Below are positions 1,266 through 21,405 of a stretch of DNA of 46,956 nt, in pieces; the first letter of the stretch is position 1, and each line of letters starts with the position of its first letter. The notes beneath the pieces are model-generated. The model worked only from the letters and a program-made list of their open reading frames with translations, had not been told where the DNA came from and made no database searches. The stretch is from a virus (lineage: Duplodnaviria; Caudoviricetes): the IMG/VR virus record IMGVR_UViG_3300032250_000235, positions 1 through 46,956 of that record. One strand, written 5' to 3'. The translations under genes and the position numbers were made by a program.

Positions 1266-1294
1266 ATTATATTACTTCTCTTCTAATAAAGCAA
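1266..1294 (-). promoter_or_regulatory. Sigma70-type promoter for the helicase (leaderless start)
   Basis: TTGCTT-N17-TATAAT, then 6 nt to the ATG at 1259, with no Shine-Dalgarno. Confidence 0.65.
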
Positions 1295-2285
1295 GTCGTG
1301 TCTCAAGATTATTCCTTGCCACACTGATTTTGATTTCACCCTGTTGGGCAGTTTTAATGGCATCAACTGTTACAAACAGTCGACCATATCTTTGTACAGC
1401 ATCCGCACAATCTTTCACATCATTGTCCCATGTGGGAAATGCCACACTCCATCCATACTCAATAGCCTGCTTGATCAACATCAGCCCGGCACGATCTTGA
1501 TCTGGAATAACAATTACTTCTTTACCCATTTGATTAATGATGTGGGCCTGTTGTTGTGCTATTTCGTTGGTTAACAATCCAACGCCGCCAACTGCTAATG
1601 CATCGAATTGTCCTTCTACCACAAATACATATTTGTTCTTTGGATCTTGCTCGTCTACATTATACACAAAGAAAGGATGTTGATCTGACAGGTACTTGGG
1701 CTTGCCTTCTCGAATTTTTCTTGCTGTACTGCCAACAATCTTACCTTCGTAATAATAAGGCAACAACACTCGATCTATGTATCCAGGTGCAGGACTCCAA
1801 AAGAAATTTTTACTTAATGCATCAAACCCTCGACTGTAAACATAATCTATCACGGGACCAATGTCTGCAGATATGTCTGGTAGGTATGCCGAATTAACCC
1901 ACTCATTGATGGACATTGCGCCTTCGGGTAATTCTTTTTCGGTGAACTTGACCTTTTCAACAAAGTGATCTGGTTCGTAGTCTGTTGATTCTGTTTTAAG
2001 TGCTTCAAATACTAACTCTTTGATTTGATCATCGTTGGCTCCTAGCCATCGGCACAGGCTCTTGAACTTTTCGGAGATGTTTCTACCAGGTTGCCAACTG
2101 GCAGTGTATTTGCAATTAAAACAATTATAAATTACACCTTCACTGAACATGACTCCTGCTCGTTTACGAGTATCTCGAGCATGACCTCTATGATGACAAC
2201 AGGGCGCATTAAAACTAATCCAACCACTTGGGCTGGTTTTAGTTTTAGGCAGCATTGATCTGAATTTGTCTAAGACGAGGGTCAT
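1272..2285 (-). CDS. gp61: DNA primase (T4 gp61-like)
   Basis: N-terminal Zn ribbon (APCCHH...CFNC), PKYL, TOPRIM motifs VVEGQFDA and PDQD...KDCAD; adjacent to the helicase. Confidence 0.9.
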   Translation of the reverse strand: MTLVLDKFRSMLPKTKTSPSGWISFNAPCCHHRGHARDTRKRAGVMFSEGVIYNCFNCKYTASWQPGRNISEKFKSLCRWLGANDDQIKELVFEALKTESTDYEPDHFVEKVKFTEKELPEGAMSINEWVNSAYLPDISADIGPVIDYVYSRGFDALSKNFFWSPAPGYIDRVLLPYYYEGKIVGSTARKIREGKPKYLSDQHPFFVYNVDEQDPKNKYVFVVEGQFDALAVGGVGLLTNEIAQQQAHIINQMGKEVIVIPDQDRAGLMLIKQAIEYGWSVAFPTWDNDVKDCADAVQRYGRLFVTVDAIKTAQQGEIKISVARNNLETRLALLEEK

Positions 2286-3119: not shown

Positions 3120-3146
3120 ACTAAACGGATCCTTTGCAGTATTTAT
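3094..3146. promoter_or_regulatory. Face-to-face pair of T4-type late promoter motifs
   Basis: TATAAATA on + at 3094-3101 (upstream of the 3149 ORF) and ATAAATA on - at 3140-3146 (upstream of the 3119 ORF). Confidence 0.5.
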
Positions 3147-3148
3147 CT

Positions 3149-3520
3149 ATGAGAATAACAGAAAACCTACAAGAAAACTTTCCATTCATAAGTGTGGTAA
3201 ATCATGTCAACCAAGAATATGTGGGAGTCGTGATTAACCAAGATGCTCAGGTCACTAGCATGTATGACTATACCTTGATTAAAACTGACAAAGAAAAGGC
3301 CAAATTCCTAGAGCTGGGCGAAATTTGGTGGTGGGAATCTAATCGACAGATTCCTATTAATATTTTCTTATTGCGTGAGATTCACGGCTTTAGATATGCT
3401 ATTAGAAACTTTTCAACAAAAGACACAAAGATATTGTTAGGTCCTTGTACCAGCCTAAATGACATTATTGTTAAAAGAATCAAGCGTAGAAGTATAACTC
3501 TAGTTAGAAAAATTACTTAA
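3149..3520 (+). CDS. Hypothetical protein
   Basis: ORF track gives 3134..3520; first ATG is at 3149 (MRITENLQENFPF...WWWESNRQIPI); fills the gap between minus-strand genes. Confidence 0.75.
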   Translation: MRITENLQENFPFISVVNHVNQEYVGVVINQDAQVTSMYDYTLIKTDKEKAKFLELGEIWWWESNRQIPINIFLLREIHGFRYAIRNFSTKDTKILLGPCTSLNDIIVKRIKRRSITLVRKIT

Positions 3521-4076
3521 CGCCAATAATCATAACACGATAAAAGGCTTTATCGTTAAATTCAAATCGTTTAATGCCTTCATAAAGCAATTCTTCTACA
3601 GGATATGCTTTGAATAGATCGTGTGCAGTGCTAAATTTGTTAACATGATCCTCATCTTCCATATCACTGGCTTGTAGGCACACAATTGTACCTTTGGGGA
3701 TATTATCCCACCATGTGTTTGAAGTCATATGCTCAACACTAGAGTTGATAACAACATCTGGCCTAGGCTTATATTCTAGTTGATTAATGTCAGCAGTGTG
3801 AGCTTTGAACTCCCAAGCCCGCCATACCCATAAGTTATTAATAGTATCAGCAACAGCTTCGCAGCTAGGATCAATATCAAAACTTCTAACTTCTAATACA
3901 GGAATTTGATTGCGTGTTCGCAATAACAAATTAGTTAGGCCATGCCAACCGGCTAACATCCAGATACGATACCCGTCTTCAATGGGTCGCTCTTCTAATA
4001 GAACATTTTCTAGTCGTTGTACAAGCCATTGTTTGCTCTGCATTTGAGCAGCACTAAAGCTATCACTGATATCCAT
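3513..4076 (-). CDS. Putative class I SAM-dependent methyltransferase
   Basis: Motif I-like LAGWHG, SFDIDP (acidic SAM contact), ADIN and DVVINSSVEH. Confidence 0.7.
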   Translation of the reverse strand: MDISDSFSAAQMQSKQWLVQRLENVLLEERPIEDGYRIWMLAGWHGLTNLLLRTRNQIPVLEVRSFDIDPSCEAVADTINNLWVWRAWEFKAHTADINQLEYKPRPDVVINSSVEHMTSNTWWDNIPKGTIVCLQASDMEDEDHVNKFSTAHDLFKAYPVEELLYEGIKRFEFNDKAFYRVMIIGVK

Positions 4077-4641
4077 AACTTATCGATTCACAAATTAAAT
4101 TCATCTGGACCACAATAGCAACAGCATAAGCAGTGGCGTGACTCTTCTTGAAATAATAATCATTAGTCTCTGGTTTCGTCCAGACTTCCGTCATAATCTC
4201 CGGCCAAGATTTCCCAATCAAGTTCCTCTTTGCTGGGCGTATCATAGCAAGGACGGCAGCTAATTGTGCCACGGAAGTGGGGCAGGTCTTCCTCAGAATT
4301 GCACCATGGCCATTCAAATGAAATAATAGATCCACAAATTCGTCTTGTAGTAGTAGGTCCCATAGCGGTTCAGTCTCCATAAGTTGTTTAAGATGTTCTT
4401 CGTTGCGAACGCCGTTGTATAATCCAACGTTAAGAAAGTCTATTTTAAAAAACTCTTGTTCTTCTGCTTGCTCATATGGCACCGAACATAGACCGGTAAC
4501 CGCATCGACAGGAACCTCATGGAGGTATACGCCAGTATTATGTTTGACCAATTGGCCATTATCACTTCTACTGGCAACTGTATGTTTAAACAGTTTCAGT
4601 GCCTGTTCGCGATTTGTAAAGTCTATGTCGATATCTGGCAT
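4063..4641 (-). CDS. Miniature DnaE-like (C-family DNA polymerase III alpha core) protein
   Basis: PDIDIDF, HNTGVY, FKIDFL, AMIRP and YFKKSHATAYA match, in order, the DnaE motifs PDxDxDF, HAGG, KxDFL, ALxRP and YGFNKSHxxAY, within only 192 aa. Confidence 0.82.
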   Translation of the reverse strand: MPDIDIDFTNREQALKLFKHTVASRSDNGQLVKHNTGVYLHEVPVDAVTGLCSVPYEQAEEQEFFKIDFLNVGLYNGVRNEEHLKQLMETEPLWDLLLQDEFVDLLFHLNGHGAILRKTCPTSVAQLAAVLAMIRPAKRNLIGKSWPEIMTEVWTKPETNDYYFKKSHATAYAVAIVVQMNLICESISYGYQ

Positions 4642-4871
4642 TATTGCAACCGTGTACTTTCAAATAACAGTAATGGTAGTGTTTCTGCTAAGAACTGTGC
4701 ATACTCTTCAGCATCTTCACTGTCCTCAAAGCCTGAAAATTTAACATACACATCAGGTGTATCCTCTCCGATTACTACTTCTATATCAATGTCATCTCTA
4801 GAGATATGTTCTTCATTGTAGGCCAATTCTTCTTCAATTGGCTCTTCATCTCGTCGCTTCTTAAAAATCAT
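4641..4871 (-). CDS. Small acidic hypothetical protein
   Basis: 76-aa D/E-rich ORF, translationally coupled to both neighbours. Confidence 0.7.
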   Translation of the reverse strand: MIFKKRRDEEPIEEELAYNEEHISRDDIDIEVVIGEDTPDVYVKFSGFEDSEDAEEYAQFLAETLPLLLFESTRLQ

Positions 4872-5554
4872 AAAATCTTCGCCTCCTTGATGACGTCTTT
4901 AACTAACTCATGATCGGCAGGAGTTGATTTGAATCTACGCATCCAGAACCCGGGATCTACCACAGGCCCAACTATTTCTAATTGTTCTTGATTCATGCGT
5001 CTAATCATGTCTTTACCTGACTTGCTATTTAACAAGATCCATGGCGAGATCAAGCCTTCTTTAATGTCGTGTGTAGCTCTGTTTAAATTCACAAAGGCAA
5101 AATAATGTTCCCAAGGAGCATCGTTCTTATCAGCCCATTCCATCATAGTCTGAATAGTGCGCTGAATAGCACCATCTGCTGGTTCAATTTTTATAAGCTC
5201 GCTGATATAAGAATCGTAAAGCTCGTCACGGCACCAGTGGTCTAATTTAATACCACTTTTAACCACATAGTCTACAAACCTTTCTGGATAGATAGGATTT
5301 GTATTGCTCATAAAACTGCCAAATTTTATAAATGCTGTATAGTATGGACTAGCTGCAAACTCTTCAAATGTCTTAGGCTGTTTGGCTTTCTGTGTCAATT
5401 CATAGAAACGCTGATAGGTCATTAGTCCTAGTTTAACATGTCTTTCGTCTTTGCTCATGTGCCGGCGTTTCTGTTCGCAGATATGCACTACCAAAGTTTT
5501 TTCTTTGGCAAAGAGCTTACTGCAATGTTCACACTTATAGTTTAATGTCTGCAA
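4868..5554 (-). CDS. Hypothetical protein with N-terminal C2H2-like zinc finger
   Basis: YKCEHCSKLFAKEKTLVVHICEQKRRH. ORF track starts at 5587; TTG at 5554 is the more plausible start. Confidence 0.75.
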   Translation of the reverse strand: MQTLNYKCEHCSKLFAKEKTLVVHICEQKRRHMSKDERHVKLGLMTYQRFYELTQKAKQPKTFEEFAASPYYTAFIKFGSFMSNTNPIYPERFVDYVVKSGIKLDHWCRDELYDSYISELIKIEPADGAIQRTIQTMMEWADKNDAPWEHYFAFVNLNRATHDIKEGLISPWILLNSKSGKDMIRRMNQEQLEIVGPVVDPGFWMRRFKSTPADHELVKDVIKEAKIL

Positions 5555-6014
5555 TTTGCTTTTTGTCCCAACCAAGGTCCTTAGCATATTCTTTGATCTC
5601 TTTGTCTGTGGTTATTGCCGCAAGTGTCTCGATGTCACTCAACTTCATATTTGGAAACAATTCTGCCAAGAACTTTTCTTTTTTATTTGCTTCTTTCTTT
5701 AAAGGGATCCATTCGTGAAATTGTGTTTTCTTACTTTCGTGACTGCATAGACAAAGAGTCTGCCAAACCAGTTTAGGGTGTTGCTGGATGTCATTCCAGT
5801 TCTTGTTGTAGTATTCGTTAACTGTTAGAATGAAGTGCTCTTGAAGTTCTCTATTAGAGCTTTTAACACTACTGATATAACGGGTAAGATTCCAAAAGTC
5901 GCCTTTAATTTCTTTGCGACCTTCGTCTGTGACTGCATCCCATAATTCTTTAATCCCCATATCTACCGCAGGAATCATGTCTTTAAAAAGATCTACGTGT
6001 TTATTTTTTGCCAT
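5535..6014 (-). CDS. Hypothetical protein, possibly clamp-loader small subunit (gp62-like)
   Basis: 159 aa, helical; LTRYISS...NEYYN...HPKL...HEWI pattern resembles T4-like gp62; replication context. Confidence 0.45.
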   Translation of the reverse strand: MAKNKHVDLFKDMIPAVDMGIKELWDAVTDEGRKEIKGDFWNLTRYISSVKSSNRELQEHFILTVNEYYNKNWNDIQQHPKLVWQTLCLCSHESKKTQFHEWIPLKKEANKKEKFLAELFPNMKLSDIETLAAITTDKEIKEYAKDLGWDKKQIADIKL

Positions 6015-6282
6015 GGTCTTTACTCAAGTGATATATGAGTATAACACGATCCATAGCTTCTTGTAAAGCTGTATTTGTCCGAGCTTCTCTTCGAATGTCG
6101 CCCCAAAGTTTATCTTCTTTCATATGCTCGTATAATGGACGACCGTCATGTGTTCTTGGATCAGTTTTATTTTCATACTGATATCCAATTAATTTTCTAT
6201 CAGTTTTACCAACTTCTCTAGCGTAGATCTCTTCGCCGTTGCGTTCGTAAACATAAGTTGCGCCTGGTGTTAAGGTACCCAT
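6001..6282 (-). CDS. Hypothetical protein
   Basis: 93-aa ORF overlapping both neighbours in an operon-like arrangement. Confidence 0.7.
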   Translation of the reverse strand: MGTLTPGATYVYERNGEEIYAREVGKTDRKLIGYQYENKTDPRTHDGRPLYEHMKEDKLWGDIRREARTNTALQEAMDRVILIYHLSKDHGKK

Positions 6283-7106
6283 AATAAATCTTCCATGGTA
6301 TACAATTGTTGCATAAAAGGAGAAGGTTTGTCAAGTACACTTCGTTCGAGATCGCCTGCTCTTCTTGGGCATACATGAACATCAAATTCACAGTTATTGA
6401 CTTTCTTATACAGGTTGATCATTTGTTTAACTGTTGTACCTACTCCGTGTCCAAGATTTTCAATTTGATTTGTTGAACGATCTATTGCCTGTTCTAGAGC
6501 ATGACAAATTTCATTGACATGAGTGTAGTCGCGTACAGCAGATCCGTCTAGAGTATTGTAATCGTCGCCAAATAAATTAAACATTCCTGTCTTTTGAGCA
6601 TTTATTAAATTCCACATAAGACCGTCTTTATTAGTCGGAGCAATTCCGTCTGAGCCAGTTACATTAAAGAATCTAAATGTGGTAAACGGAATAGATCGTT
6701 CTTTGCAATACTGATCTACAATTTCTTCAGAGGCTCGTTTGCTGATGCCATAGGGATTATTCATTGGGCCCGCCGAACCTGTGCTAGCATGTATAAATCG
6801 TTTGTATTTTAATTCTTGGAGAATTCGTAAGGTACCCATAGTGTTTGTTTGATAATATTTTATGGGATTTTTTACACTACGACCAACTGCTACTTCGGCT
6901 GCTAAATGAATTACACAATCAAATTCAAAATCTCTCGTCCACAGAAAATATCCGGGCATAGAGATGTCGTTTCTGGAATGTTCTTTGACTGGCAGCTGAG
7001 GTATATTCCTATCTAGACCGTAGAGTTCTAGATCGTTTCTTTTATTCAGAAGCTGAGTTAAGTGACTACCAATGTAGCCAGCATTGCCTGTTATTAGTAT
7101 TTTCAT
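6270..7106 (-). CDS. galE: NAD-dependent epimerase (UDP-glucose 4-epimerase-like)
   Basis: ILITGNAGYIGSH Rossmann motif, HLAA, YGISK (YxxxK), FRFFNV, DGSAVRDYTHV, RRAGD. Confidence 0.88.
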   Translation of the reverse strand: MKILITGNAGYIGSHLTQLLNKRNDLELYGLDRNIPQLPVKEHSRNDISMPGYFLWTRDFEFDCVIHLAAEVAVGRSVKNPIKYYQTNTMGTLRILQELKYKRFIHASTGSAGPMNNPYGISKRASEEIVDQYCKERSIPFTTFRFFNVTGSDGIAPTNKDGLMWNLINAQKTGMFNLFGDDYNTLDGSAVRDYTHVNEICHALEQAIDRSTNQIENLGHGVGTTVKQMINLYKKVNNCEFDVHVCPRRAGDLERSVLDKPSPFMQQLYTMEDLLWVP

Positions 7107-7777
7107 TTATAAACCATAACACAGTCTTTTGGCCAACTCACTTCCATGGTATAACCCCATCCTAATAATAGTTCAACCGCTAAATTTCCTTCTTCTCCGT
7201 AATACCTTTTCGAATAATTTTTCTCTTCCATTAGTATTACAGGTTTATACTTTTTAATAGTTTGCTCGGCACCTTTTAGAATATACGGTTCATACCCTTC
7301 ACAATCTAATTTTATAAATCCAACTTCTGTTAATTCAAAAGAATCTAAAGTTTTACAACTGTGTGTTCCGGAAACTTCTTTATTGATATGGGTACCAAAG
7401 GTATTTTTAAGATAATTTAAAGAAACAAGTTCTTCTTTGTCACTTAGGCCACAATCACACACTACTACATTGTTTAATTGAAACTTTTCTACATTTTTTT
7501 TAAGACAGTCTCGCACCGGAGTATCTACTTCGAACGCATAAATTTTAGAGAACTTGCTGTTTAAATTAGCACTCATTATACCATAGTTGGCACCTGCATC
7601 TATAGCTGTAGTAAAATTTTTAACGAATCCTAAAGCAATATTGAGTTTACCTTTCTGATAATCGATAACAGTCGGAGGTTGATTATCGATACTATCGGCT
7701 CTTGCAAGTGCAGATCTTAATGCACGATCTCCGGGAATAGTTTCCCATTCATCTATATTTTCGTATTGCTTTGTCAT
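7103..7777 (-). CDS. FkbM-family methyltransferase
   Basis: IDAGANYG, YAFE, TLDS and FIKLDCEGYEPYILKGA motifs. Confidence 0.88.
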   Translation of the reverse strand: MTKQYENIDEWETIPGDRALRSALARADSIDNQPPTVIDYQKGKLNIALGFVKNFTTAIDAGANYGIMSANLNSKFSKIYAFEVDTPVRDCLKKNVEKFQLNNVVVCDCGLSDKEELVSLNYLKNTFGTHINKEVSGTHSCKTLDSFELTEVGFIKLDCEGYEPYILKGAEQTIKKYKPVILMEEKNYSKRYYGEEGNLAVELLLGWGYTMEVSWPKDCVMVYK

Positions 7778-8122
7778 TTAAAATCCTTTGTCTCTCTCAA
7801 CATTCCAAGCAATGGCCGTTTGTAGACCATTCGGTTTGGGATCATTCATCACAATTCTTTCACCTAACGGTAGACCAAATATTGCATAATTGTATCGTAG
7901 CCCGTTGTCTTTTAATATCTGTAGACTTGAGTCTTTGTACTCTTCTGCTCTACCGGTAGTGATTATAATATAATCATTCACAGGTATTGATGCCCATAAT
8001 TCTTTTACGCCAGGCAGCAATTCATCATTGTTGGTTAGATAGCCGTTGTGTTTTAAAATTGTCCCGTCGAGGTCTATGAACCAAGTATGATTAAGATTTT
8101 CTGATAATTGAAACGGAATCAT
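7778..8122 (-). CDS. Small HAD-superfamily phosphatase
   Basis: FIDLDGT (motif I), TTGR (motif II), ND (motif IV-like); 114 aa, capless. Confidence 0.8.
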   Translation of the reverse strand: MIPFQLSENLNHTWFIDLDGTILKHNGYLTNNDELLPGVKELWASIPVNDYIIITTGRAEEYKDSSLQILKDNGLRYNYAIFGLPLGERIVMNDPKPNGLQTAIAWNVERDKGF

Positions 8123-9627
8123 TTGAGTCCTTGTTCTAGGTGATACAGGCCAAGATAAAAACTTCCTATAACACTGTCGATGTCGTCTTTGGCATAACCG
8201 CTAAGTGACAACCAAATTAATCCGTGTAATATTTTAATCTTGTCAATGTCTTTAGTGAAATGTTCAGTGAAAATATCTTCAGCTGCCTTTTCAAAACCTG
8301 TAGGTTCTTGTAGTATTTCAACGGTTTCCGAATCTACATGTAGTTTAAATTTTCTTCGATTAAACATGTCGTATCCACCAACTGCTGAATAATACACCTT
8401 GGCAAAATCATACATCGGATCACCCCATATACCAGGCTTGCTAAAGTAGCCTCTTGGATCAATGTACCACACTTTTAAATTTTTATCAATTAAGCTGTTG
8501 CTAAATGTAGGGTCTCCGTGTATTGGTGTAAACAATGACGGTTGTATTTCTGTTATTAACGATTCAAAAATATGTTTGTGTTTTTTAGAAAATACATTTC
8601 TGCATTTTAATCCGTTGACTGTGACTGCATCCTTATCAAAGTTAGGAATAATTTTTGATACGCTGTCGACTCGATTTAGAGTTTTTGTAATATATGTATC
8701 AACAGTTTCTTCTGGTACTGAAGATCTTTTAGAAAGATCGTGTAAGGAAGTCAATGAATCAATATAGTCTGCTAGAACTGCACATTTTTCTCTACTAGTT
8801 AAGTCAGTCATTTGATAAGCATGACAGCCTTTTATCCTTGTCATTACATAGGGATCTGTAGAAATAATTTTAGGTATTCTTCTAAATCCTAGATCGTGTA
8901 CAGAATTATACCATGCTTGCTCTTTGCCAATGAGATGATGGTAATTGCTGTCGATGGCTCGTTTCTCTACTACATCATCCTTGATGATCACTTCGTTGAA
9001 AAATCTACTAAAACCAGCACGGTCGTTCTGTGTTTCGATAGTTATGAAATCGCCAAGTTCTTCTAGTTCTTCGCAATCAGTCATACTAAACTGATTTATG
9101 TTTTTACTAAACCATTTAACAAATTCACCGCTAGCAGGAGGTTCTGGAAAATACTTTGCTTGACTGGCATAGAATATTCCAGGGATGCCACGAGGACCTG
9201 GTTGTTCTACTAATGTGTTATTTTCTGACACTGTCCATCTACAAGTAAATGCATGTGTGGTTATTACTGTGGGAATATTTGTATTTAAAATTCTAGGAAA
9301 ATCATTAATGATTAGATCACTCCAGGTGATAATTAATTCAGCTTCTGGAGGAACATTTTTCAATGCATTAGAAATTCCCGAACAAGTTCCTTTTTCATCA
9401 GTCTTTGTTAGTGTATATGGTACCGCCGGGGTGTTAACTTCTAAATATTTTTCAAGTTGATCAAATGCATAATCGCCGATGATATGAAAATGTGCATCTG
9501 GAAATTTATCAAATAAATGATATAATAACGGTTTTCCTTTTACACTAACTAAACACTTTGGTTTGTTCCATGTGTGGTGTCTTAGCCTGCTACCGCGGCC
9601 GCCAGCCTGTACAATTATATGCATCAT
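8119..9627 (-). CDS. Fused sugar-phosphate nucleotidyltransferase / APH-choline-kinase-like phosphotransferase
   Basis: N-terminal QAGGRGSRL...KPKCL and WSDL; C-terminal IHGDPTFSN, YIDPRG and DPMYDFAK. Start set at the ATGA overlap at 9627 (track gives 9663). Confidence 0.85.
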   Translation of the reverse strand: MMHIIVQAGGRGSRLRHHTWNKPKCLVSVKGKPLLYHLFDKFPDAHFHIIGDYAFDQLEKYLEVNTPAVPYTLTKTDEKGTCSGISNALKNVPPEAELIITWSDLIINDFPRILNTNIPTVITTHAFTCRWTVSENNTLVEQPGPRGIPGIFYASQAKYFPEPPASGEFVKWFSKNINQFSMTDCEELEELGDFITIETQNDRAGFSRFFNEVIIKDDVVEKRAIDSNYHHLIGKEQAWYNSVHDLGFRRIPKIISTDPYVMTRIKGCHAYQMTDLTSREKCAVLADYIDSLTSLHDLSKRSSVPEETVDTYITKTLNRVDSVSKIIPNFDKDAVTVNGLKCRNVFSKKHKHIFESLITEIQPSLFTPIHGDPTFSNSLIDKNLKVWYIDPRGYFSKPGIWGDPMYDFAKVYYSAVGGYDMFNRRKFKLHVDSETVEILQEPTGFEKAAEDIFTEHFTKDIDKIKILHGLIWLSLSGYAKDDIDSVIGSFYLGLYHLEQGLK

Positions 9628-10346
9628 ATTACAACAACATCGGGTTTTAACGGTGCATCCCATAATTTATTTCTATGCCAAACATATATTCCGTGCGGCA
9701 TTTCTGGATAATTGTTGCACTGATGTTGGAACGCCTGTCTATCAAAAACAAAGTTTGCTAATTTAATTACACCTGATTTTGCCATGCTGTCAAAGGCAGT
9801 GTCTATATTTCTAGCAAATCCCTTTTCTGTCATTGGCCCCATGTCAACATCTTTGATCAGTTGCCACGGCATGCTACCTCTAAGCAAACATAAACCAAAT
9901 GTCCAACCGTCATTTAGATTCCTGTAAAAATCTAAACTGAATCCGTCGAGATCTTTATCTAACAGATACTGTTCGGCTGTTTTTAGTTTTTCTCTTAGAC
10001 CGTCGAAATCTCTAGTTAGAAATAATGTATCGTCTGCGTCAATCATCCAAAAGTTTTCTGTTTTCTTAGTATGTTGAAATGCAGTAAGATTAGCCGAAGC
10101 CATACCTCGTTTGGCTCCTTTTAGATTTTGACAATAAGTATCACCTATTGAATAATCGCTGTTAATAACAGTAACATCGTAATCTATTAAGACTGTTTTT
10201 AGATAGTCTGGAGTTGGCTCAGTGACTGGGTTATATCGGTCACACAGTATAAATGTTTTATAATTCTTAAATAGTTCTAACCAAAATCTCAAACATAAAA
10301 CTGCTGCGGGATCAGTTCTGTGAAATTTTAAAAAAACTTTAGTCAT
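9624..10346 (-). CDS. Putative GT-A glycosyltransferase
   Basis: FWMIDADD (DxD) after a Rossmann-like N-terminus; sugar-pathway context. Confidence 0.55.
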   Translation of the reverse strand: MTKVFLKFHRTDPAAVLCLRFWLELFKNYKTFILCDRYNPVTEPTPDYLKTVLIDYDVTVINSDYSIGDTYCQNLKGAKRGMASANLTAFQHTKKTENFWMIDADDTLFLTRDFDGLREKLKTAEQYLLDKDLDGFSLDFYRNLNDGWTFGLCLLRGSMPWQLIKDVDMGPMTEKGFARNIDTAFDSMAKSGVIKLANFVFDRQAFQHQCNNYPEMPHGIYVWHRNKLWDAPLKPDVVVI

Positions 10347-11071
10347 TGTTTACCTTTTCTTCTCATTGCTTTTGCAATAAGTTTTTCTCTTTTCTCTTTT
10401 CCTTCTCCCTTATAATGCATCATGTAACCATCAAATGCTGCATTAAAGTGTTGTTTTGTTACACCGATTGGAGAAACACTATGAGAGCTTATTCTATTAT
10501 CTAATTCAAATTCTTTTCTGACTACATCAAAGACAAACCCATCATGATATTGTTCAAGATCGTATATAGCATCAGTATTGTAGTACCATTCGTATCTATC
10601 AAAGAAATTTTTAGCCTCAGGGTGCTTCATATCAAAAATTAAAAAACCAGTTTCGCTAGCAGTATTTCTGCCAACATATCCTACAAACTTTCCTTTAGGT
10701 AAAAATTTTAAAAAGTATGCTGGATCTACTGTGTCATAAATTTCAGTATCGGCATCGAGCCATATTAGATAATCTAGATCCTTTTCTCTAGAAGCATGAA
10801 CTGTGGCGTAAACTTTATGTGAAAATCTAACTCCGTCAAATTTAAAATCTTTAAAGTTTTTATCTGTATTTCTTTTTTTAAAATTTACTAAGTCGGGGCA
10901 GCAGTCTTCTAGATTTAGGAATGAAACATTCTCTTTATTTTTTATATCTATAGTATCTTTGTAAATTACTACATCTATATCTCTTATATGTTTAAAACAA
11001 CTGTCGACAAAGTTTTTGGCGTAATCGTGATATCCTTTGTCGCTGAAAGTAGATAATAATTTAATTTTCAT
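10343..11071 (-). CDS. Putative GT-A glycosyltransferase (paralog of 16502..17308)
   Basis: VRFSHKVYA, LIWLDADT (DxD), ETGF, HDGFVFD and HYKG. Confidence 0.75.
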   Translation of the reverse strand: MKIKLLSTFSDKGYHDYAKNFVDSCFKHIRDIDVVIYKDTIDIKNKENVSFLNLEDCCPDLVNFKKRNTDKNFKDFKFDGVRFSHKVYATVHASREKDLDYLIWLDADTEIYDTVDPAYFLKFLPKGKFVGYVGRNTASETGFLIFDMKHPEAKNFFDRYEWYYNTDAIYDLEQYHDGFVFDVVRKEFELDNRISSHSVSPIGVTKQHFNAAFDGYMMHYKGEGKEKREKLIAKAMRRKGKQ

Positions 11072-11662
11072 TTATACAAACCTTATCTCTGCATTGATAT
11101 GCTTTCTATGTTTGCTTAAAATTTTTAATATTTCAACGCTATCGTCGTTGTGAAAAATTTCTTTGGTTTTTAAATGTAGTCTAATATCTAAAAATATTCT
11201 TGTATTTTCATGTGAATGTTGTAATATTAGATCTTTGTATGTGCTTGCAGGATAATGAAATCCGCACGATAACCAAGAAGTAATTACATCAAATTTTTTA
11301 TCTTTAGGTATTGAAATATTGTTGACATCTATCAAGTTATAGTTTTTAGTTCCTTTAGCGTCAAGTTGTTCTTTGAGCCAAGATATTGGATGATAAAATA
11401 AAAAATCATCAGGACTGACATGATAGTTGACTTCGCTAGACGATTGTGGCTTGCTTTCATTAAAGGATGTATCGCCGTCTAACAACCATAACTCTGTTCC
11501 GTATTTGTCGTTAAACATTCTGGATTCCCATGCTAGACCACAACCGATATCTAATATTGAGGTGGGAGGGTTGGCTAACTCAGCATCAAGCAGATCAAAA
11601 TTTAATTTTTTTGCTGCCTGATATTCCGGCGTACTCCATTCTCCCGATAACCATGTTGACAT
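11072..11662 (-). CDS. Class I SAM-dependent methyltransferase
   Basis: ILDIGCGLA, LLDG and KFDVITSWLSCGFHYP. Confidence 0.82.
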   Translation of the reverse strand: MSTWLSGEWSTPEYQAAKKLNFDLLDAELANPPTSILDIGCGLAWESRMFNDKYGTELWLLDGDTSFNESKPQSSSEVNYHVSPDDFLFYHPISWLKEQLDAKGTKNYNLIDVNNISIPKDKKFDVITSWLSCGFHYPASTYKDLILQHSHENTRIFLDIRLHLKTKEIFHNDDSVEILKILSKHRKHINAEIRFV

Positions 11663-12043: not shown

Positions 12044-12550
12044 TTACAGCACCTTGTCTAGCTGTAAAATTTCACTCTGACGGCTAACTTCTTTAACAAA
12101 ATATGCACAAGGCGGATTTTCTCCGTCATGCAGAGGAACTGTTAACAACTGGCCGTTCTTCATTTTTGGAAAATACCACTTGACATCTTGATAAATGTTA
12201 ACAATTTCAATTGGCATATACTCGCACTTAAAACCTTTAATAGGATTAAAAATAAATGCATCAAATCCTCGTTCGTTCAAACTGGTTAACGGTAAAACTT
12301 CTGGGTCCATGCCGCAGTCTTTATCTCCAACTACCATACACCAATCTAACGGCATTTGTACTTGGTGCCCTCCAATATTTAATAGTATTGCAGGCGAATT
12401 AAACGATTCTAAAAATATCAAAGGCATAAAGAAAAAGTCAGGTTCGCTGGCATTGCTATTATCTAATACGCTGTATCGAACATCATCTTCTATCTCGTCT
12501 GGTAAATCGTTTAGGTCAAAAGACCTGTTATTAAGTGTTAAAATTTTCAT
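12044..12550 (-). CDS. Hypothetical protein with possible degenerate Hint (intein-like) fold
   Basis: 168-aa ORF coupled to uvsW; beta-strand pattern resembles Hint blocks (see findings). Confidence 0.7.
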   Translation of the reverse strand: MKILTLNNRSFDLNDLPDEIEDDVRYSVLDNSNASEPDFFFMPLIFLESFNSPAILLNIGGHQVQMPLDWCMVVGDKDCGMDPEVLPLTSLNERGFDAFIFNPIKGFKCEYMPIEIVNIYQDVKWYFPKMKNGQLLTVPLHDGENPPCAYFVKEVSRQSEILQLDKVL

Positions 12551-15184: not shown

Positions 15185-15213
15185 AGTATAGCACCTAAAA
15201 TTGTGAAAATCAA
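15185..15213 (-). promoter_or_regulatory. Sigma70-type promoter (leaderless start)
   Basis: TTGATT-N17-TATACT with extended -10 TG, then 6 nt to the ATG at 15178. Confidence 0.7.
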
Positions 15214-16064
15214 GGCCTAATTTTTAATTTTTCTTCAAGGCAACTTTCAAGGCGTTTGAGTGGAATGCCTTGACTGATTTCATCTACGGTCCATTCAGTA
15301 TGACACAATTTAAGAAACCATTCCTCACGATCGGGCAATTGTAGAGTTTCTAAATTTTCCCACTTTTCACTGACAGGAAACGCCAAACTTGAAGAATCGC
15401 AGATAGTAGGAGTACCATGTATTACTGCTTGAACAGATGGACCACTATTGTGATTGATCACACAATGATAATTATAATTGATATCAAATTCGTCGTAGGT
15501 GTTGACTAATTTTCTTGGAAGTTCGATTACTGCGTCGGCAAATTTTTCACGAATTTGTGACCGAGGATGTGGTCTAACCACAATTCTTCGATTGGTATAT
15601 CGTTTTACTTTTGCTATGGTGTCACGAATCCACTGTTCCATACTAGGTTGACCTTGCCATTGTAGACTTCGACTGTGTTGAGTGGCAATTAGAATTTCGT
15701 TGCGCCTCTTTGATTTCTCGGGTTGGAGGCCAACACCTAATTTTTGTGGTCTCGAGGGGTCTAAATTTTCAATATTTCCAAATGTTCCAAGGCCGTTAAT
15801 ATGTCCTTCGGAAATTCTCCATGTTTGTCCTCTTTTCAAACTGCCAACTTCGATAACCACAATAGGTTTGTTTTGTTTAACACAGGCATTGTAAATTTGT
15901 TGATTGCCGGCCATGCGGCCATTCCATAAAACTGACCAAATTACAGCCACATCTTCGCTGTTTTCCACAATTTCGTGACCGCACGATCTAACACCATTAG
16001 CAAAGGCATCAAATACTGGAACACTGTTTAGAGCTCCAAAATTTCTGTAAAGTTTGAATTTCAT
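15210..16064 (-). CDS. KpsS/KpsC-like (capsule synthesis, GT-B) putative glycosyltransferase, paralog 1
   Basis: IVVRPHP, NSGPSVQAVIHGTP, DREEWFLKLCHTEWTVDEI. Confidence 0.65.
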   Translation of the reverse strand: MKFKLYRNFGALNSVPVFDAFANGVRSCGHEIVENSEDVAVIWSVLWNGRMAGNQQIYNACVKQNKPIVVIEVGSLKRGQTWRISEGHINGLGTFGNIENLDPSRPQKLGVGLQPEKSKRRNEILIATQHSRSLQWQGQPSMEQWIRDTIAKVKRYTNRRIVVRPHPRSQIREKFADAVIELPRKLVNTYDEFDINYNYHCVINHNSGPSVQAVIHGTPTICDSSSLAFPVSEKWENLETLQLPDREEWFLKLCHTEWTVDEISQGIPLKRLESCLEEKLKIRP

Positions 16065-16070
16065 ATAAAA

Positions 16071-16088
16071 TAAATAACTGAGTATTTA
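16071..16088. promoter_or_regulatory. Overlapping face-to-face late promoter motifs
   Basis: TAAATA (+, 16071-16076) and TAAATA (-, 16083-16088) in the 33-nt gap between divergent genes. Confidence 0.5.
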
Positions 16089-16097
16089 ATCCATATC

Positions 16098-16505
16098 ATG
16101 TCTAAATTTATAAAAAGAATTCAAAAAACTGTTAAAAAATCTATAGACACTGTCATAGTGGTAGGTTCTGATCAAAAAAATATCGAAAATGTAATTGGCG
16201 GTTTCAATACAGTATTCTGTGTCAGTTATCAACACCAGTTGCCTAGGTATAAAAATGTTATACCTATACAAGATAACAATTTTTTAAATGAATTGCAAAA
16301 TATTGATATAATTTTCCTTAATATCAATTATGATGATGGGATTTTTCAATTTATTCCCCAACTAACAAGAAGATGTGCTCCTGTTATTTTTTTACATAAA
16401 GATCTTGTACTAAGTACTGAGTACATCGATTTCTTTAGAAGAATTAGATACGAACAAATCACTATTTTAGATGATTATCAAGTTTGGAAAATTATAAGAA
16501 AATGA
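16098..16505 (+). CDS. Hypothetical protein (possible degenerate methyltransferase-like Rossmann fold)
   Basis: 135-aa AT-rich ORF, ATGA-coupled to the downstream glycosyltransferase. Confidence 0.65.
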   Translation: MSKFIKRIQKTVKKSIDTVIVVGSDQKNIENVIGGFNTVFCVSYQHQLPRYKNVIPIQDNNFLNELQNIDIIFLNINYDDGIFQFIPQLTRRCAPVIFLHKDLVLSTEYIDFFRRIRYEQITILDDYQVWKIIRK

Positions 16506-17308
16506 AAATTGCCGTTGTTACTACATTTCACGAAGAAGGCCTTAAAAAATATGCACAAAAGATGATTGATGGCTTTTGTGAACAATGGCCTAGAGAAATT
16601 ACCTTACACATTTATCCAGAAAAATGTAATCCTGTAATTCGAGACCACAGCCATGTTACTCTGACCGACCTAGATAGTGTTGCTCCACTGGCTACATTTA
16701 AAGAACGATGGAAAAATGTTCCAAAAGCCAACGGTGATGTCACTGACGACCCAGTTAGAAGCAAACGAAAGGATGCAGGCAAAGGTTTTAAATGGCATGC
16801 GGTTAGATTTGCTCACAAAGTCTACGCCATAACCGATTGTGCAAGGACCACTGATGCAGATGTCTTAATTTGGATGGATGCTGATACCATATGTCATAGT
16901 CCTATCACTTTAGAACGCATACAGCAATTAATTCCAGCAGATAAAGATCTCTGTTTTCTTGGACGCAAAGGAAAATACACAGAATGCGGATTATACGCTA
17001 TGAATTTGCGTAGTCCTACTGTTCTTTCTTTCTTGCAAGAGTTTCAACGAATGTACGATGATGCCGAAAACGGAATTTTTAGGCTTGCCGAATGGCATGA
17101 CAGTTTTGTTTTCGATGCTGTCCGTGCTAAATTTAGAAATCTAAAAGAATTAGATTGGAGTAGTCATCTAATAACCGGAGAAGGGCATCCTTTGATCAAC
17201 AGCGAATGGGGAGCTTATCTAGACCACCTCAAAGGAGGAAGAAAAACTCTAGGCCGCAGTAAAAAAGATGATCTCAAAGTAAAAAGAACTGAAGCATATT
17301 GGCAATGA
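16502..17308 (+). CDS. Putative GT-A glycosyltransferase (paralog of 10343..11071)
   Basis: VRFAHKVYA, LIWMDADT, ECGLY, WHDSFVFD and DHLKG; start at the ATGA overlap at 16502. Confidence 0.78.
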   Translation: MKIAVVTTFHEEGLKKYAQKMIDGFCEQWPREITLHIYPEKCNPVIRDHSHVTLTDLDSVAPLATFKERWKNVPKANGDVTDDPVRSKRKDAGKGFKWHAVRFAHKVYAITDCARTTDADVLIWMDADTICHSPITLERIQQLIPADKDLCFLGRKGKYTECGLYAMNLRSPTVLSFLQEFQRMYDDAENGIFRLAEWHDSFVFDAVRAKFRNLKELDWSSHLITGEGHPLINSEWGAYLDHLKGGRKTLGRSKKDDLKVKRTEAYWQ

Positions 17309-18075
17309 CTGTGAATTTTGTCTGCGTTGAAGGCACAGATTACGGAGCCACTGAATTTACCAAAGGTAGTGGTGGAAAATTTGTCAGCTATGAAGAAATG
17401 TCTGCAAACACTAGCCTACCCATGTGTTGGGCAGGATTTTTTAAACCTCAATGGGTAGAAATTTGCAAAAAATATAATTTAAAATTTTATAATTTTGATG
17501 GCGCATATTTTGGCAACGGTAAAAAGAAAACCATTTTTAGATTGAGTGTTAATAATTTTCAAAATATTAATCCAATAATAGAAAGACCTCAGGATCGCTG
17601 GGATAGATTAAATTTAAAGCCCGAACACTTTACACAGGGATCCACAGTTGTTGTTGTACCCCCCGACAGAAAAATAATTCACACACTTGGGTTAGGTTCA
17701 GAAGATCAATGGATCGACGAAACTGTTGTTAAGATAAAAACTTTTACAGATCGTGAAATTAAAATTAGAAAGCGACCTGCACCTAGGGCCGATAGAATAG
17801 TTTCAAATACTTTTAAAGATTTCATTAGAGATGACACTTTCTGTGTAGTGGGCTATTCATCCAATGCACTAGTTGAAGCAGCCATGCACGATATACCAGT
17901 GATCCCATTGGGTCATTCTGCCACAAAAAGTTTATACAGTTATCAATTAGAAGACCTTGAAAAAATAAAGCCTGCTTATCCTAGCGATAAACAGGCCTGG
18001 CTAAATCATCTAGCCTATTCTCAATTTACTAGAGAAGAATTAATTTCTGGTCTAGCTTGGGAACTTATTAATTAA
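17305..18075 (+). CDS. KpsS/KpsC-like putative glycosyltransferase, paralog 2
   Basis: FDGAYF, IKIRKRP, SSNALVEAAMHDIP and AWLNHLAYSQFTREELISG; ATGA overlap at 17305. Confidence 0.65.
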   Translation: MTVNFVCVEGTDYGATEFTKGSGGKFVSYEEMSANTSLPMCWAGFFKPQWVEICKKYNLKFYNFDGAYFGNGKKKTIFRLSVNNFQNINPIIERPQDRWDRLNLKPEHFTQGSTVVVVPPDRKIIHTLGLGSEDQWIDETVVKIKTFTDREIKIRKRPAPRADRIVSNTFKDFIRDDTFCVVGYSSNALVEAAMHDIPVIPLGHSATKSLYSYQLEDLEKIKPAYPSDKQAWLNHLAYSQFTREELISGLAWELIN

Positions 18076-18076
18076 T

Positions 18077-18790
18077 TTATTTTCCGCCGAATCTTGCTGC
18101 ATACGGTCCGGGTCCTAAATATCTTTTTAAAATACTTGTGTCTGCAGGACTGTTGTGTCCGGTCTTTGGTGCCCAAACAAAATTTCGTTTGCTTTTAACA
18201 TAGACAGTTTCATATCCGTAATTTTCCATCAGTTCGCAGCATAGATCAATGTCTTCGTTGACTTCTATCATAATCCATGGTCGCTGTGTTGTTATGATAT
18301 TGTGCATGCCTTTCAGCGCATCTAGTTCCCAACCCTGTGTGTCAATTTTAACCAAATCAACATTTTCTAAATTTTCATCATCTAACTTCACTACAGGTAC
18401 TGTATATGTAGACTTAACACCTTCTCTACATAGTTTGCCATCTCCACAGTTTTTTCCGGCTTGATGGAATTTAGCTTCGCCATTAAAGTCAGCTACTGCT
18501 TTTGTTCTTAGTTCAATACCGGTAGGAATATTTGTCTTGATGCATTCAATATTCTGTACACTTGGTTCATAAGATACAACCTTGTTAAAATGTTGAGTCA
18601 TTGGTAAACTCCAAATGCCGACATTCGCTCCTACATCTATAAAAGTTCTTTTATTAGGCAAGTGCTCAATAACTAATTTTCTATATTTGTCCTCGTAGGC
18701 AGGATTCATCATATCTGTGTCGTTTTCTAATAAAAATGACACACGCTGATCATCATCAGGTACCATCCAACCGTTGTTTAGTTTTTTCAT
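18077..18790 (-). CDS. FkbM-family methyltransferase
   Basis: FIDVGANVG, SYEP, KLDD and LVKIDTQGWELDALKG. Confidence 0.88.
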   Translation of the reverse strand: MKKLNNGWMVPDDDQRVSFLLENDTDMMNPAYEDKYRKLVIEHLPNKRTFIDVGANVGIWSLPMTQHFNKVVSYEPSVQNIECIKTNIPTGIELRTKAVADFNGEAKFHQAGKNCGDGKLCREGVKSTYTVPVVKLDDENLENVDLVKIDTQGWELDALKGMHNIITTQRPWIMIEVNEDIDLCCELMENYGYETVYVKSKRNFVWAPKTGHNSPADTSILKRYLGPGPYAARFGGK

Positions 18791-19389
18791 TTTGTTTCCT
18801 GTTCGTTAATAATTATTGCACATTGCATAATGACCTTTCCGTCATTGTTTTTTTCTATTAGTTCTGTTATTGGTATTCCTGAAGTTCTTAATTCTTCTAT
18901 AAATTTAGCTACTCCTGGAAACTTTTCTGGATAGGTGTCGTCAAATATTATAACCTTGCTGTCTTTGACTTGTTCATAATCCCATTTAACTGTGGAATAC
19001 GAATGGCCACCATCTATATATACCATGTCAAATGTTAGTGGCCCAATTAATGTGTTGTGTGTCCAACCCTTGATTAATTCGTAAGATTCTAATAATTGAT
19101 TCTTAATATACTTATCGCATCGTTCTTTAATCACTTCGTACGATGCAGATTCTTTACCGTTATGCTCCATCTCATTAGTAATTGGATTTTTTGGATATTC
19201 AAAAGTTGGCCGTATTGCTAATTCAAACGCATCATAGCCCGTATATTTGATTTTATATCCTAAATTTTTAGATGCAGGTAATAGCGACTTTAATGTCAAT
19301 CCTTCATGACATCCAATTTCACAGAATGTTTTTGGTTTATATTTTTCTATCAACGGTTTAAACACCGCATTCCATTTATAATCTTTCAT
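18787..19389 (-). CDS. Class I SAM-dependent methyltransferase (Methyltransf_24-like)
   Basis: CEIGCHEG, GYDAF, FDMVYIDGGHSY, IIFDD and PGV. Confidence 0.85.
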   Translation of the reverse strand: MKDYKWNAVFKPLIEKYKPKTFCEIGCHEGLTLKSLLPASKNLGYKIKYTGYDAFELAIRPTFEYPKNPITNEMEHNGKESASYEVIKERCDKYIKNQLLESYELIKGWTHNTLIGPLTFDMVYIDGGHSYSTVKWDYEQVKDSKVIIFDDTYPEKFPGVAKFIEELRTSGIPITELIEKNNDGKVIMQCAIIINEQETK

Positions 19390-20309
19390 ATATACTTTTT
19401 AAAAAATTGCCAAGCTTCACCCGATTTTAACTCATCAAAGTTCCAATGGCACATGGCTAATTTCTCAACCCAGGCTTGTCTATCGGGCATTACGGGATTT
19501 TCAATATTACTTATATCTGTATTTGCAACATCAAAACTTTGACTGTGTTGAGGAACGCTGTCTGTTAAAAATGCTGGCACGCCTTCTATTATACTAGCTA
19601 CACTAGGGCTACTGTTGTAAACTACTGTTGCCCAAGCTCCTCTAAGATCATCTACTAAATTTTCTTTAGTACTTAAAGAAACATTTTTATGGCTAATCTT
19701 TAAAATGCTTTTTATTTTTTTATCGCCGGGGTGTGCTCTAACAACAATCGGCCTATTTGAATATTTTCTAATATTAGCAATTGTCGAGTTCATCCAATCA
19801 ATCGAACTAAACCCTCCCATCGACCAACCACCGTTTCTCTGCAAACACAATAAGATGTGGTTGCCTGAAGTCCTCCAGGGTTTTAAATTTAGATTTAAAT
19901 TTCTACTAATCTTAGTCCATCTCGAAGGATCAATATCTTTATCAAAATAAAATCCAGTTGTGGGAAAAACTCCATCAAAACTATATCTAAGATAATGTAA
20001 AGGATTTGTTTTATTGACATATAAAAATAAATTACTGTCAACAACTAACGATCTTTTACCGTTTTTGCATTGTCTATCTATGGCCGATTTTCTCAAGTTG
20101 AGATGCGGCATTTGCTTGCCGTCGTTGTGTACAAATCCTTGTATCAAAGCTACATCACAATCTAGAACTGACATTTCTTTATGTGCCACAGCAGTATCTC
20201 CTACTGCAATAACTCCTTGACAAAAATAATCAAGAATTAGAGGCTTTTCTAGATTAGAATTGTTTGGGGGTATTCCTGCATAGTAGGCTACGGCTGTAAG
20301 TTTAGACAT
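19386..20309 (-). CDS. KpsS/KpsC-like putative glycosyltransferase, paralog 3
   Basis: IVVRAHP, NSSPSVASIIEGVP and DRQAWVEKLAMCHWNFDELKSG. Confidence 0.65.
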   Translation of the reverse strand: MSKLTAVAYYAGIPPNNSNLEKPLILDYFCQGVIAVGDTAVAHKEMSVLDCDVALIQGFVHNDGKQMPHLNLRKSAIDRQCKNGKRSLVVDSNLFLYVNKTNPLHYLRYSFDGVFPTTGFYFDKDIDPSRWTKISRNLNLNLKPWRTSGNHILLCLQRNGGWSMGGFSSIDWMNSTIANIRKYSNRPIVVRAHPGDKKIKSILKISHKNVSLSTKENLVDDLRGAWATVVYNSSPSVASIIEGVPAFLTDSVPQHSQSFDVANTDISNIENPVMPDRQAWVEKLAMCHWNFDELKSGEAWQFFKKYI

Positions 20310-21405
20310 TGTGATATTGCCTCACAATACTTAGAGCAGTTCCGTCCATTAGTTCGTCAAAAGTAAATTGACAATAACTTAGCCAAGCTAGCCAATCTCC
20401 TAGCGGGCCGTAGTAAAGATCATTTATGTCACTTAAATTGCTTCGGGTCACTGCATTACTAACATGCTTATCAAGAGTAATAGCCGGAATCCCTGCCCAA
20501 ATAGATTCGATTGCACTATTAGAATTAATACTAACAGTACAATAATAATTGCCCTGTTGCAACTGCTGGTAAAGACTAGTCCGTTTCTTTTTATTTGTTT
20601 TAGATCTAAATTCTATAGGTCTATCAGTGTATTTTCTAAGTTCGGCCGCTACCTGCTGCCCCCAAGACTTTGCTTCAACGTGCATAATATTAGCAGCGAA
20701 CTCTCCGGGCTCTACAATCAAAATAGCAGAACCATCTTTTCTCCAAGGTTGAGGAAAACTCTTAAATGTGCCTAACCTATCTGCAGGGGCTACAAAACTT
20801 TGATTAAAGTGTAGATGATTTCTTACTAACCTATGCCATTTTTTGTTAGGTTCTATAAAATTGGTGTAGCCGCTGTCCATAAACCAGAATGGCAGATTGT
20901 TGTCTATCTTGTTAACTATGGTAGTTTCACGGCCTATGGTATTCCGTATCAAACAATCTTCATTAATATTTGTAAAATGTTTGCGCCTTATCATCTCTGC
21001 ATTAGGATCTATTTGTAGGCCGACTGTTTTTACAAAATAATCAACATCCCCTTTGAGATAGCTAGTTATTACTTGATTTTCGTCAAGGCGATTTAACAAG
21101 TAATCTATTCGTGTATGAATATTACGAAAATGATATTTTCTATATCTAGTTACTATTTCATTAATTTGGCTGCGCCAAATCTGTAGATCTTTGGTAACAC
21201 CTTGTCTAATTTTTTGTTTAAATTTATCTCTATGTTTTTCTAAACTGAATTTTGCATGATTCTGTTTTTCTAAAATATATGCAATAGAGTGTGCAATATT
21301 AGAATTGTCAGATTCGTCCATCTTAATATGGCTGCATTGTTCTTTAATATTGATTAGAATACAAAGATAGTTTGCAAGTTCTGTATCATTTACAAGTAAT
21401 TTCAT
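20302..21405 (-). CDS. KpsS/KpsC-like putative glycosyltransferase with N-terminal helical extension, paralog 4
   Basis: MDSGYT, NSNSAIESIWAGIP and WLSYCQFTFDELMDG; ATGA overlap start at 21405 (track gives 21423). Confidence 0.65.
   Translation of the reverse strand: MKLLVNDTELANYLCILINIKEQCSHIKMDESDNSNIAHSIAYILEKQNHAKFSLEKHRDKFKQKIRQGVTKDLQIWRSQINEIVTRYRKYHFRNIHTRIDYLLNRLDENQVITSYLKGDVDYFVKTVGLQIDPNAEMIRRKHFTNINEDCLIRNTIGRETTIVNKIDNNLPFWFMDSGYTNFIEPNKKWHRLVRNHLHFNQSFVAPADRLGTFKSFPQPWRKDGSAILIVEPGEFAANIMHVEAKSWGQQVAAELRKYTDRPIEFRSKTNKKKRTSLYQQLQQGNYYCTVSINSNSAIESIWAGIPAITLDKHVSNAVTRSNLSDINDLYYGPLGDWLAWLSYCQFTFDELMDGTALSIVRQYHNV

Follow-up and report, generated by a model that had tools for sequence, protein, structure and literature searches.

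The gene at positions 4063 to 4641 (minus strand) of the DNA analysed here almost certainly encodes the C-terminal half (C-half) of a family C DNA polymerase. It runs from ATG to stop, specifies 192 aa and would represent the aspartate-bearing (Mg2+- and template-binding) C-terminal subunit of a split, minimal Pol III alpha. The stretch analysed, called the window below, comprises an entire virus record (46,956 bases), with an estimated completeness of 13%. On balance, we favour the view that this half and a separately encoded N-terminal half (N-half) make up a two-gene family C mini-polymerase, which would serve next to a family B enzyme (PolB) as an accessory DNA polymerase of low processivity.

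The C-terminal polymerase half

The 192-aa protein starts MPDIDIDF. Its motifs follow the order reported in a first-pass annotation of the sequence: PDIDIDF (residues 2-8), HNTGV (34-38), KIDFL (66-70), AMIRP (132-136) and YFKKSHATAYA (163-173). The reading frame is intact, as had also been stated, and shares a TAATG stop/start overlap with the upstream 76-aa ORF. A contig from the possible source run spans positions 3400-4907 with 1 letter different, and a contig from another sample spans 4172-4709 with 7 letters different.

PHROG 11778 ('DNA polymerase') matches the protein over its full length (E 7.5e-67). Relatives were identified in 96 cultured phage records, all of which (96/96) cover at least 80% of the query, with a best identity of 54%. 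Jumbo phages, some of them as partial records, account for all the cultured matches listed (60 of the 96), which include Phosso, Atu_ph07, XacN1, PA5oct, GAP32, RaK2 and 121Q. Environmental protein clusters close to it in length were also scored, and 7,983 of 7,999 candidates pass as relatives. Such matches exceed by a wide margin what chance would produce. The gene is a common core gene and not an oddity. In Atu_ph07, the C-half gene (L001:11992-12567) has its annotated start at 12073, downstream of the DxD motif, apparently a mis-called start.

A Pfam search with the C-half returned no family and a single-sequence PDB search no match, while a profile search reaches DnaE at an E-value of 0.0011. 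The AlphaFold model has a pLDDT of 89.7. Foldseek places Pol III alpha or PolC in each of its best 13 rows, with weak E-values (best 5.2e-3). In the VIA comparison, family C fills the top 7 of 48,161 rows, at Z 8.5-5.6 with 180-188 aligned residues and an rmsd of 3.8-5.1, and the next row has a Z of 3.9. The model aligns to residues 401-784 of E. coli alpha with a Z near 8, which is only moderate. The C-family origin first proposed from the motifs was right. A Pol beta-like palm and fingers fold is present in the predicted models, at moderate Z for the C-half.

Conservation was analysed in a set of homologs drawn from 134 loci, which gave 134 matches; two cut by contig ends were removed and 110 unique full-length sequences were kept (35-89% identity). 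D3, D5, D7, H34, K66, D68, L70, R135, P136, K138, F164, H168 and Y172 are invariant in 110/110. Because the peptide words used to seed the loci include the DxD motif, conservation of D3 and D5 is somewhat favoured in this set. D3, D5 and D7, in the PDIDIDF motif (4618..4638, minus strand), correspond to E. coli D401, D403 and D405. The KIDFL motif (4432..4446, minus strand) provides K66 (K553) and D68 (D555), the third catalytic Asp. H34 and F164 align to H511 and F756 of the E. coli alpha sequence. AMIRPAKR (4225..4248, minus strand) carries the invariant R135-P136-K138, and its R139 may be the counterpart of E. coli R709, according to a pairwise alignment only. In YFKKSHATAYA (4123..4155, minus strand), H168 corresponds to the steric gate H760 and Y172 to Y764. 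D401, D403 and D555 are described as universal family C catalytic residues (PMC3919608), and H760 as the modelled steric gate in DnaE (PMC8485763). The annotation's claim that all three catalytic aspartates (here D3, D5 and D68) are kept thus extends to every homolog of the set.

The homologs are uniform in length, with 180-202 residues counted from the first Asp in the 110 unique sequences. The spacing between D7 and H34 is 27, compared with 106 in E. coli, so that ~80 residues have gone from what we take to be the thumb region. Between P136 and F164, ~88 residues have gone from the fingers relative to E. coli. The earlier suggestion of a deliberate minimisation is upheld. The position of E. 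coli R710 is not Arg in the C-half homologs.

The N-terminal half and the predicted heterodimer

The protein had been presented as standalone and as keeping the whole catalytic core. Neither description can be maintained. The C-half starts at the DxD motif and is devoid of the GRGS loop; this nucleotide-binding part of the palm lies in another gene, and the C-half is therefore not a whole core. Nor does it stand alone: the N-half gene is present in all three complete cultured relatives examined and in 12/12 contigs over 340 kb found through the GAP32 C-half, the latter being close kin and not independent. In Atu_ph07, Phosso and GAP32 it is a separate ORF of ~155-175 aa with GRGS, matching PF07733 at positions ~18-98. 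It stops where the C-half starts, and the two genes are 34-224 kb apart in the relatives. The first-pass annotation had itself named complementary DnaE pieces elsewhere in the genome, forming an ordinary split polymerase, as grounds for rejecting its reading. Such a piece does occur in the relatives and counts against that reading, although the resulting pair is minimal and not an ordinary split.

The N-half of a relative matches PHROG 11127 ('DNA polymerase', E 3.2e-39). Residues 52-155 of the N-half model align to E. coli 274-395 with Z up to 12.8 and an rmsd of 1.8, a match that abuts the one of the C-half (401-784). For residues 1-51 (L093:1297-1450) no fold matches clearly, but they take part in the predicted interface described below. 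G121-R122-G123-S124 is invariant in 63/63 partners. In DnaE, the GRGS loop binds the incoming nucleotide, with G363/S364 and R362 described as nucleotide-binding (PMC4374717). The arginines that contact the dNTP in family C enzymes are R362, R390, R709 and R710. Of these, R362 is kept on the N-half, and at least 90% of the 63 partners have Glu in place of R390. R396 falls into the gap between the halves. The N-half lies in a conserved block (L093:1074-2384, L004, L005, L006) comprising a ~78-aa gene, the N-half itself, a PHROG 14844 gene and a GroES-like co-chaperonin.

The distribution of the two genes was surveyed in incomplete genomes. In the clade to which the window belongs, 4/18 partial contigs carry the N-half. 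Eighteen long contigs (31-100% complete), chosen from the searches with both halves and all but one of them (17/18) fragments, comprise 7 with both halves, 7 with the C-half only and 4 with the N-half only. One candidate for a true partner-less genome, G001, was rejected because both tested neighbours of the N-half are also missing from it, which indicates a gap. G020, a contig of 202 kb that has terminal repeats, carries the N-half and a small upstream gene (L150:3781-4477) but no C-half. Its terminase is 33% identical, it has no matching primase and the N-half sits in a short block of an otherwise unrelated genome. This exception to the co-occurrence looks like an unrelated phage that received the block by transfer, or a chimera. 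A fused form was sought among 610 longer candidates; the single case, of 350 aa, combines an unrelated N-terminus with a partial C-half and is probably a chimera. Among these candidates the outcome speaks weakly against a fused form, and rare ones may exist. The divergence of the two halves correlates over 19 genomes (r 0.98); as 13 of these are close kin, shared descent explains the value and it was not counted as evidence of co-evolution. On the window's contig, 13% complete, neither a motif scan nor a profile search detected an N-half, and we therefore infer the partner for this phage. A longer version of the genome, of 97.6 kb, is on record, but scanning metagenome contigs for an exact pattern gave 0 matches.

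Complex prediction was carried out with the cognate pair of a relative (G003), the C-half of which shares 71% identity with that of the window. The pair scored 0.91, compared with 0.03 for the best of 3 controls; the docking mark is attained by 116/157 solved pairs and 2/215 mismatched pairs. The runs share at least 93% of contacts and the partner has a pLDDT of at least 85. The predicted interface comprises ~180 contacts and involves residues 2-9 and 165-171 of the C-half and 114-128 and 144-153 of the N-half. The palm would thus be rebuilt by the two chains, with the DxD strand (2-9), the KKSH helix (165-171) and the GRGS loop and C-terminus of the partner in the interface. Split-gene halves may also reach such a score through their likeness to solved DnaE, and the modelled docking supports binding rather than demonstrating it. 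The option that the protein is one subunit of a complex was well chosen, but the predicted partner is the product of a distant gene and not one of the neighbours that had been named.

Gene neighbourhood and proposed function

The gene order around the C-half is shared across relatives, in agreement with the synteny that the first-pass annotation proposed to examine. A DnaG-type primase (1272..2285, minus strand; PHROG 47, E 5.3e-32) follows the C-half in 63/63 close loci with flank. A DnaB-like helicase gene comes after the primase and runs off the contig end; it is annotated in relatives. The usual direct downstream neighbour is a convergent gene of 128 aa (3134..3520, plus strand; PHROG 11637), found in 69/69 close loci with flank. 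It has an invariant WW..N..P motif and occupies this position from the window's clade to GAP32; a PDB search with its product gave no match. In the window, a 187-aa ORF (3513..4076, minus strand) is inserted between them, as in 8/71 close loci with enough flank. It does overlap the polymerase half by 14 nt, as had been observed, but its methyltransferase label was assigned by eye only and finds no Pfam, PHROG or NCBIfam match. Since this ORF is sporadic and without a family match, its coupling to the polymerase half is regarded as incidental.

On the other side, the C-half is preceded by three genes. The acidic 76-aa ORF (4641..4871, minus strand), coupled through the TAATG, is a clade-level neighbour (63/80 close loci). 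It is followed upstream by a conserved protein of ~230 aa that has a zinc finger at its N-terminus (4868..5587, minus strand; PHROG 11058) and a conserved 159-aa protein (5535..6014, minus strand; PHROG 11758), each present in 76/76 close loci with flank. The zinc finger is eukaryote-like, with C5, C8, H21 and C23 invariant in 36 rows, and gave zinc-finger matches only. The gp62 label proposed for the 159-aa protein is unproven: comparison with T4 gp62 by hhalign yields a probability of 0.5%, and comparison of the zinc-finger protein with T4 gp59 one of 0.1%, both weak tests with a single T4 sequence as template. None of the three conserved neighbours (128-aa, ~230-aa and 159-aa proteins) matched a DnaE domain.

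A superfamily 2 helicase gene lies upstream of the C-half, and visual inspection, together with the annotation of GAP32, points to RecA-like and ssDNA-binding genes further on. A conserved 168-aa gene (12044-12550, minus strand; PHROG 11279) directly follows the helicase in nearly all relatives. Two large blocks of sugar-modifying genes (6270-11662 and 15210-24370, minus strand) are inserted among the replication genes; they include an epimerase, FkbM methyltransferases, a nucleotidyltransferase, glycosyltransferases and a number of repeated paralogs.

PolB, named in the first-pass annotation as the usual replicase of T4-like phages and the likely replicase here, was found in the genomes of relatives (3/3 cultured and 5/18 partial). 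Its motifs are intact in all 7 loci that were read, although Atu_ph07 (L008) has them divided between two adjacent ORFs. Searches of five genomes (3 complete, 2 partial) detected PHP in 0/5 and HhH_6 in 0/5; in the same five, a finger model matches the C-half gene, always below the cut-off.

The two halves, as a dimer, are likely to be an active DNA polymerase. In the mechanism proposed, the aspartate-bearing C-half would pair with the separately encoded nucleotide-binding N-half, and the heterodimer would catalyse two-metal, template-directed dNTP addition with the His steric gate retained. Synthesis would be distributive, with only a few bases added each time the enzyme binds, since the HhH, the clamp-binding region, the long fingers and most of the thumb are missing. 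The enzyme may extend the primers made by the primase or recombination 3' ends and fill short gaps before handing over to PolB, a role suggested by gene order and by the missing domains, to which we assign somewhat less than an even chance; its place beside PolB is suggested by the gene neighbourhood. Since Glu stands at the R390 position, R396 falls in the break and R710 has no Arg counterpart, triphosphate binding appears remodelled. The altered site may be unsuited to ordinary DNA synthesis. Judging from sequence, a conserved C-terminal Lys on the N-half, together with K138 and R139, could compensate for the altered arginines. The literature covered, from which subscription journals are mostly absent, yielded no activity data or bench tests of the split minimal Pol III.

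The same losses allow another reading, in which the pair would have been repurposed after the loss of its DNA-gripping domains and would act, without template direction, as a terminal or protein/nucleic-acid nucleotidyltransferase. It draws on the ~80 (D7-H34) and ~88 (P136-F164) missing residues, on HhH in 0/5 genomes and on the change of R390 to Glu and loss of R396. We consider it unlikely, as invariance extends to the finger helices and to the primer-binding Lys, the steric-gate His and the Y764 equivalent, and the gene stays next to the primase and helicase.

It is rather improbable that the pair is a true replicative core for one strand, with phage proteins in place of the thumb, clamp binding and proofreading. 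The three neighbours fixed next to the C-half (69/69, 76/76 and 76/76) and the ~50-residue N-terminal part of the N-half without a clear fold match might supply such functions, and one-strand synthesis is raised as a possibility by Iyer et al. (PMC7824862). However, an intact PolB is present in relatives, and no neighbour matched a DnaE domain or, in the weak single-sequence tests, T4 gp62 or gp59. The minimal size of the pair and its place beside the primase and helicase would also suit an enzyme that itself synthesises primers, de novo or as RNA, but a full DnaG-type primase is already there and the His that excludes ribonucleotides is invariant, which makes this very doubtful. That the 192-aa protein works as a standalone nucleotidyltransferase is more doubtful still: it has the three aspartates together in a single chain, which is modelled with confidence on its own (pLDDT 89.7), but the missing GRGS loop is supplied exactly by a co-occurring gene whose product would make ~180 contacts with it. 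Finally, the altered triphosphate arginines might denote a decaying fragment or a catalytically dead scaffold, a view scarcely credible in the face of uniform length and catalytic residues invariant across 35-89% identity.

A nested reading frame

The C-half gene contains, on the same strand, a shifted-frame ORF of 66 codons (4163..4363, minus strand), likely an overprinted gene, whose first nucleotide is the last base of codon 93. A GGAG Shine-Dalgarno-like (SD) site (4375..4378, minus strand) stands 11 nt before its ATG. This spacing is long; relatives often carry AGGAG or GGAG 5 nt before the nested ATG.

The frame was examined in 117 unique genes, of which 2 with ambiguous bases were removed, leaving 72 close (at least 58% identity, window included) and 43 distant ones. 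The nested ATG followed by at least 58 open codons is found in 64/72 close genes, compared with 1.05 open frames expected under synonymous recoding, and in 16/18 when the close genes are thinned to under 75% identity. It is a feature of the window's clade, the frame being shut in all 43 distant homologs read, cultured ones included. Within the overlap, third-position T is rare where it would form a stop in the nested frame (23/764), compared with 952/2,639 at harmless junctions within the overlap and 1,107/2,399 at stop-forming junctions outside it. The distant genes exhibit no such drop (232/480). The SD-like site and the open frame occur together in 61 genes, one without the other in 3 and 3, and neither in 5 (Fisher p 2e-4, uncorrected for kinship). 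Six neighbouring genes, with 44-71 copies each, contain no comparable nested ORF. On a tree built from alignment columns outside the overlap, the nested frame switches state 9 times and the SD site shifts between its positions (5-6 or 11 nt) 11 times, and the signal is therefore not one inherited accident.

Four-fold sites are not more conserved inside the overlap (1.62 vs 1.49 bits, p 0.11), and the nested peptide is loosely conserved among close homologs. Third-position G rises to 0.39 in codons 126-157, compared with 0.12 in codons 1-92, which gives the nested peptide an acidic tail. Frameshifting into the nested frame was considered and is unlikely, since the window has an in-frame stop 2 codons before the nested ATG. 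The peptide has no exact match in a collection of 15 billion, and no literature on the nested gene was found. The pattern fits a shifted frame that selection keeps open, its start codon and ribosome-binding site being conserved. It is quite probable that a 66-aa overprinted protein, encoded within the polymerase-half gene, is real in this clade.

Lambda Rz1 is an overprinted gene nested inside Rz. Like it, the putative nested gene is on the same strand in a shifted frame, wholly internal and equipped with its own ribosome-binding site. Unlike Rz1, it is enclosed in a polymerase subunit gene and its product belongs to no known family. A more daring proposal, which we regard as rather unlikely, concerns both genes. 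In it, a largely thumbless, active family C polymerase of ~350 residues in two chains, among the smallest conceivable and with a remodelled triphosphate site, would be accompanied by a co-produced overprinted protein of 66 aa, basic at its head and acidic in its tail, that regulates the subunit or replaces the lost DNA- or partner-binding parts.

Relation to known systems and significance

The PHROG families of the two halves (11778 and 11127) match them over their full length, with labels that are silent on their being halves of one enzyme. With bacterial DnaE and PolC the pair shares a Pol beta-like palm, the equivalents of D401/D403/D555, K553, H760 and Y764, and the GRGS loop, here on the partner. 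It differs from DnaE by its size (~350 aa in two chains vs 1160), by PHP and HhH not being found in the five genomes searched, by the largely deleted thumb and long fingers, and by the replacement of R390 by Glu and the loss of R396. The 192-aa chain itself falls well short of a complete DnaE, with its PHP, thumb, HhH, clamp motif and OB.

In cyanobacteria, the two DnaE halves are rejoined by a split intein into the full-length enzyme. That intein-split DnaE is likewise a Pol III alpha in two genes (PMC3919608), whereas the phage split has no apparent intein sequence, is broken inside the palm just before DxD and has lost most domains.

The closest precedent is Iyer et al. 2021, who predicted a split minimal Pol III alpha from sequence in group 2.2 jumbo phages and suggest cooperation with PolB in one-strand synthesis or repair (PMC7824862). 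Their C-terminal unit, like the C-half described here, is a small separate gene with Mg-binding aspartates (PMC7824862). The window fits the context of group 2.2 T4-like jumbo phages through its jumbo-phage matches and shared gene order. The distant N-half gene and PolB of this group are seen in its relatives, the window itself being 13% complete and without the N-half. It differs from the cultured phages of the group in belonging to an uncultured, probably freshwater clade, with a best identity of 54% and the nested ORF. The accessible portions of PMC11348598 and PMC9123017 contain nothing specific on split Pol III, and Iyer et al. 2021 is the only relevant report found, in a survey mostly outside subscription journals.

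The polymerase half adds a member to a family already known at the sequence level, and the likely overprinted gene sets this clade's version apart. As both chains are small and model well, they make it possible to test the least set of elements that a bacterial-type replicase needs, and they raise the question of why jumbo phages that possess PolB retain a mini Pol III. The nested frame, which gene callers miss, would, if translated, represent a datable gene birth inside an essential-looking enzyme gene of an abundant phage clade.
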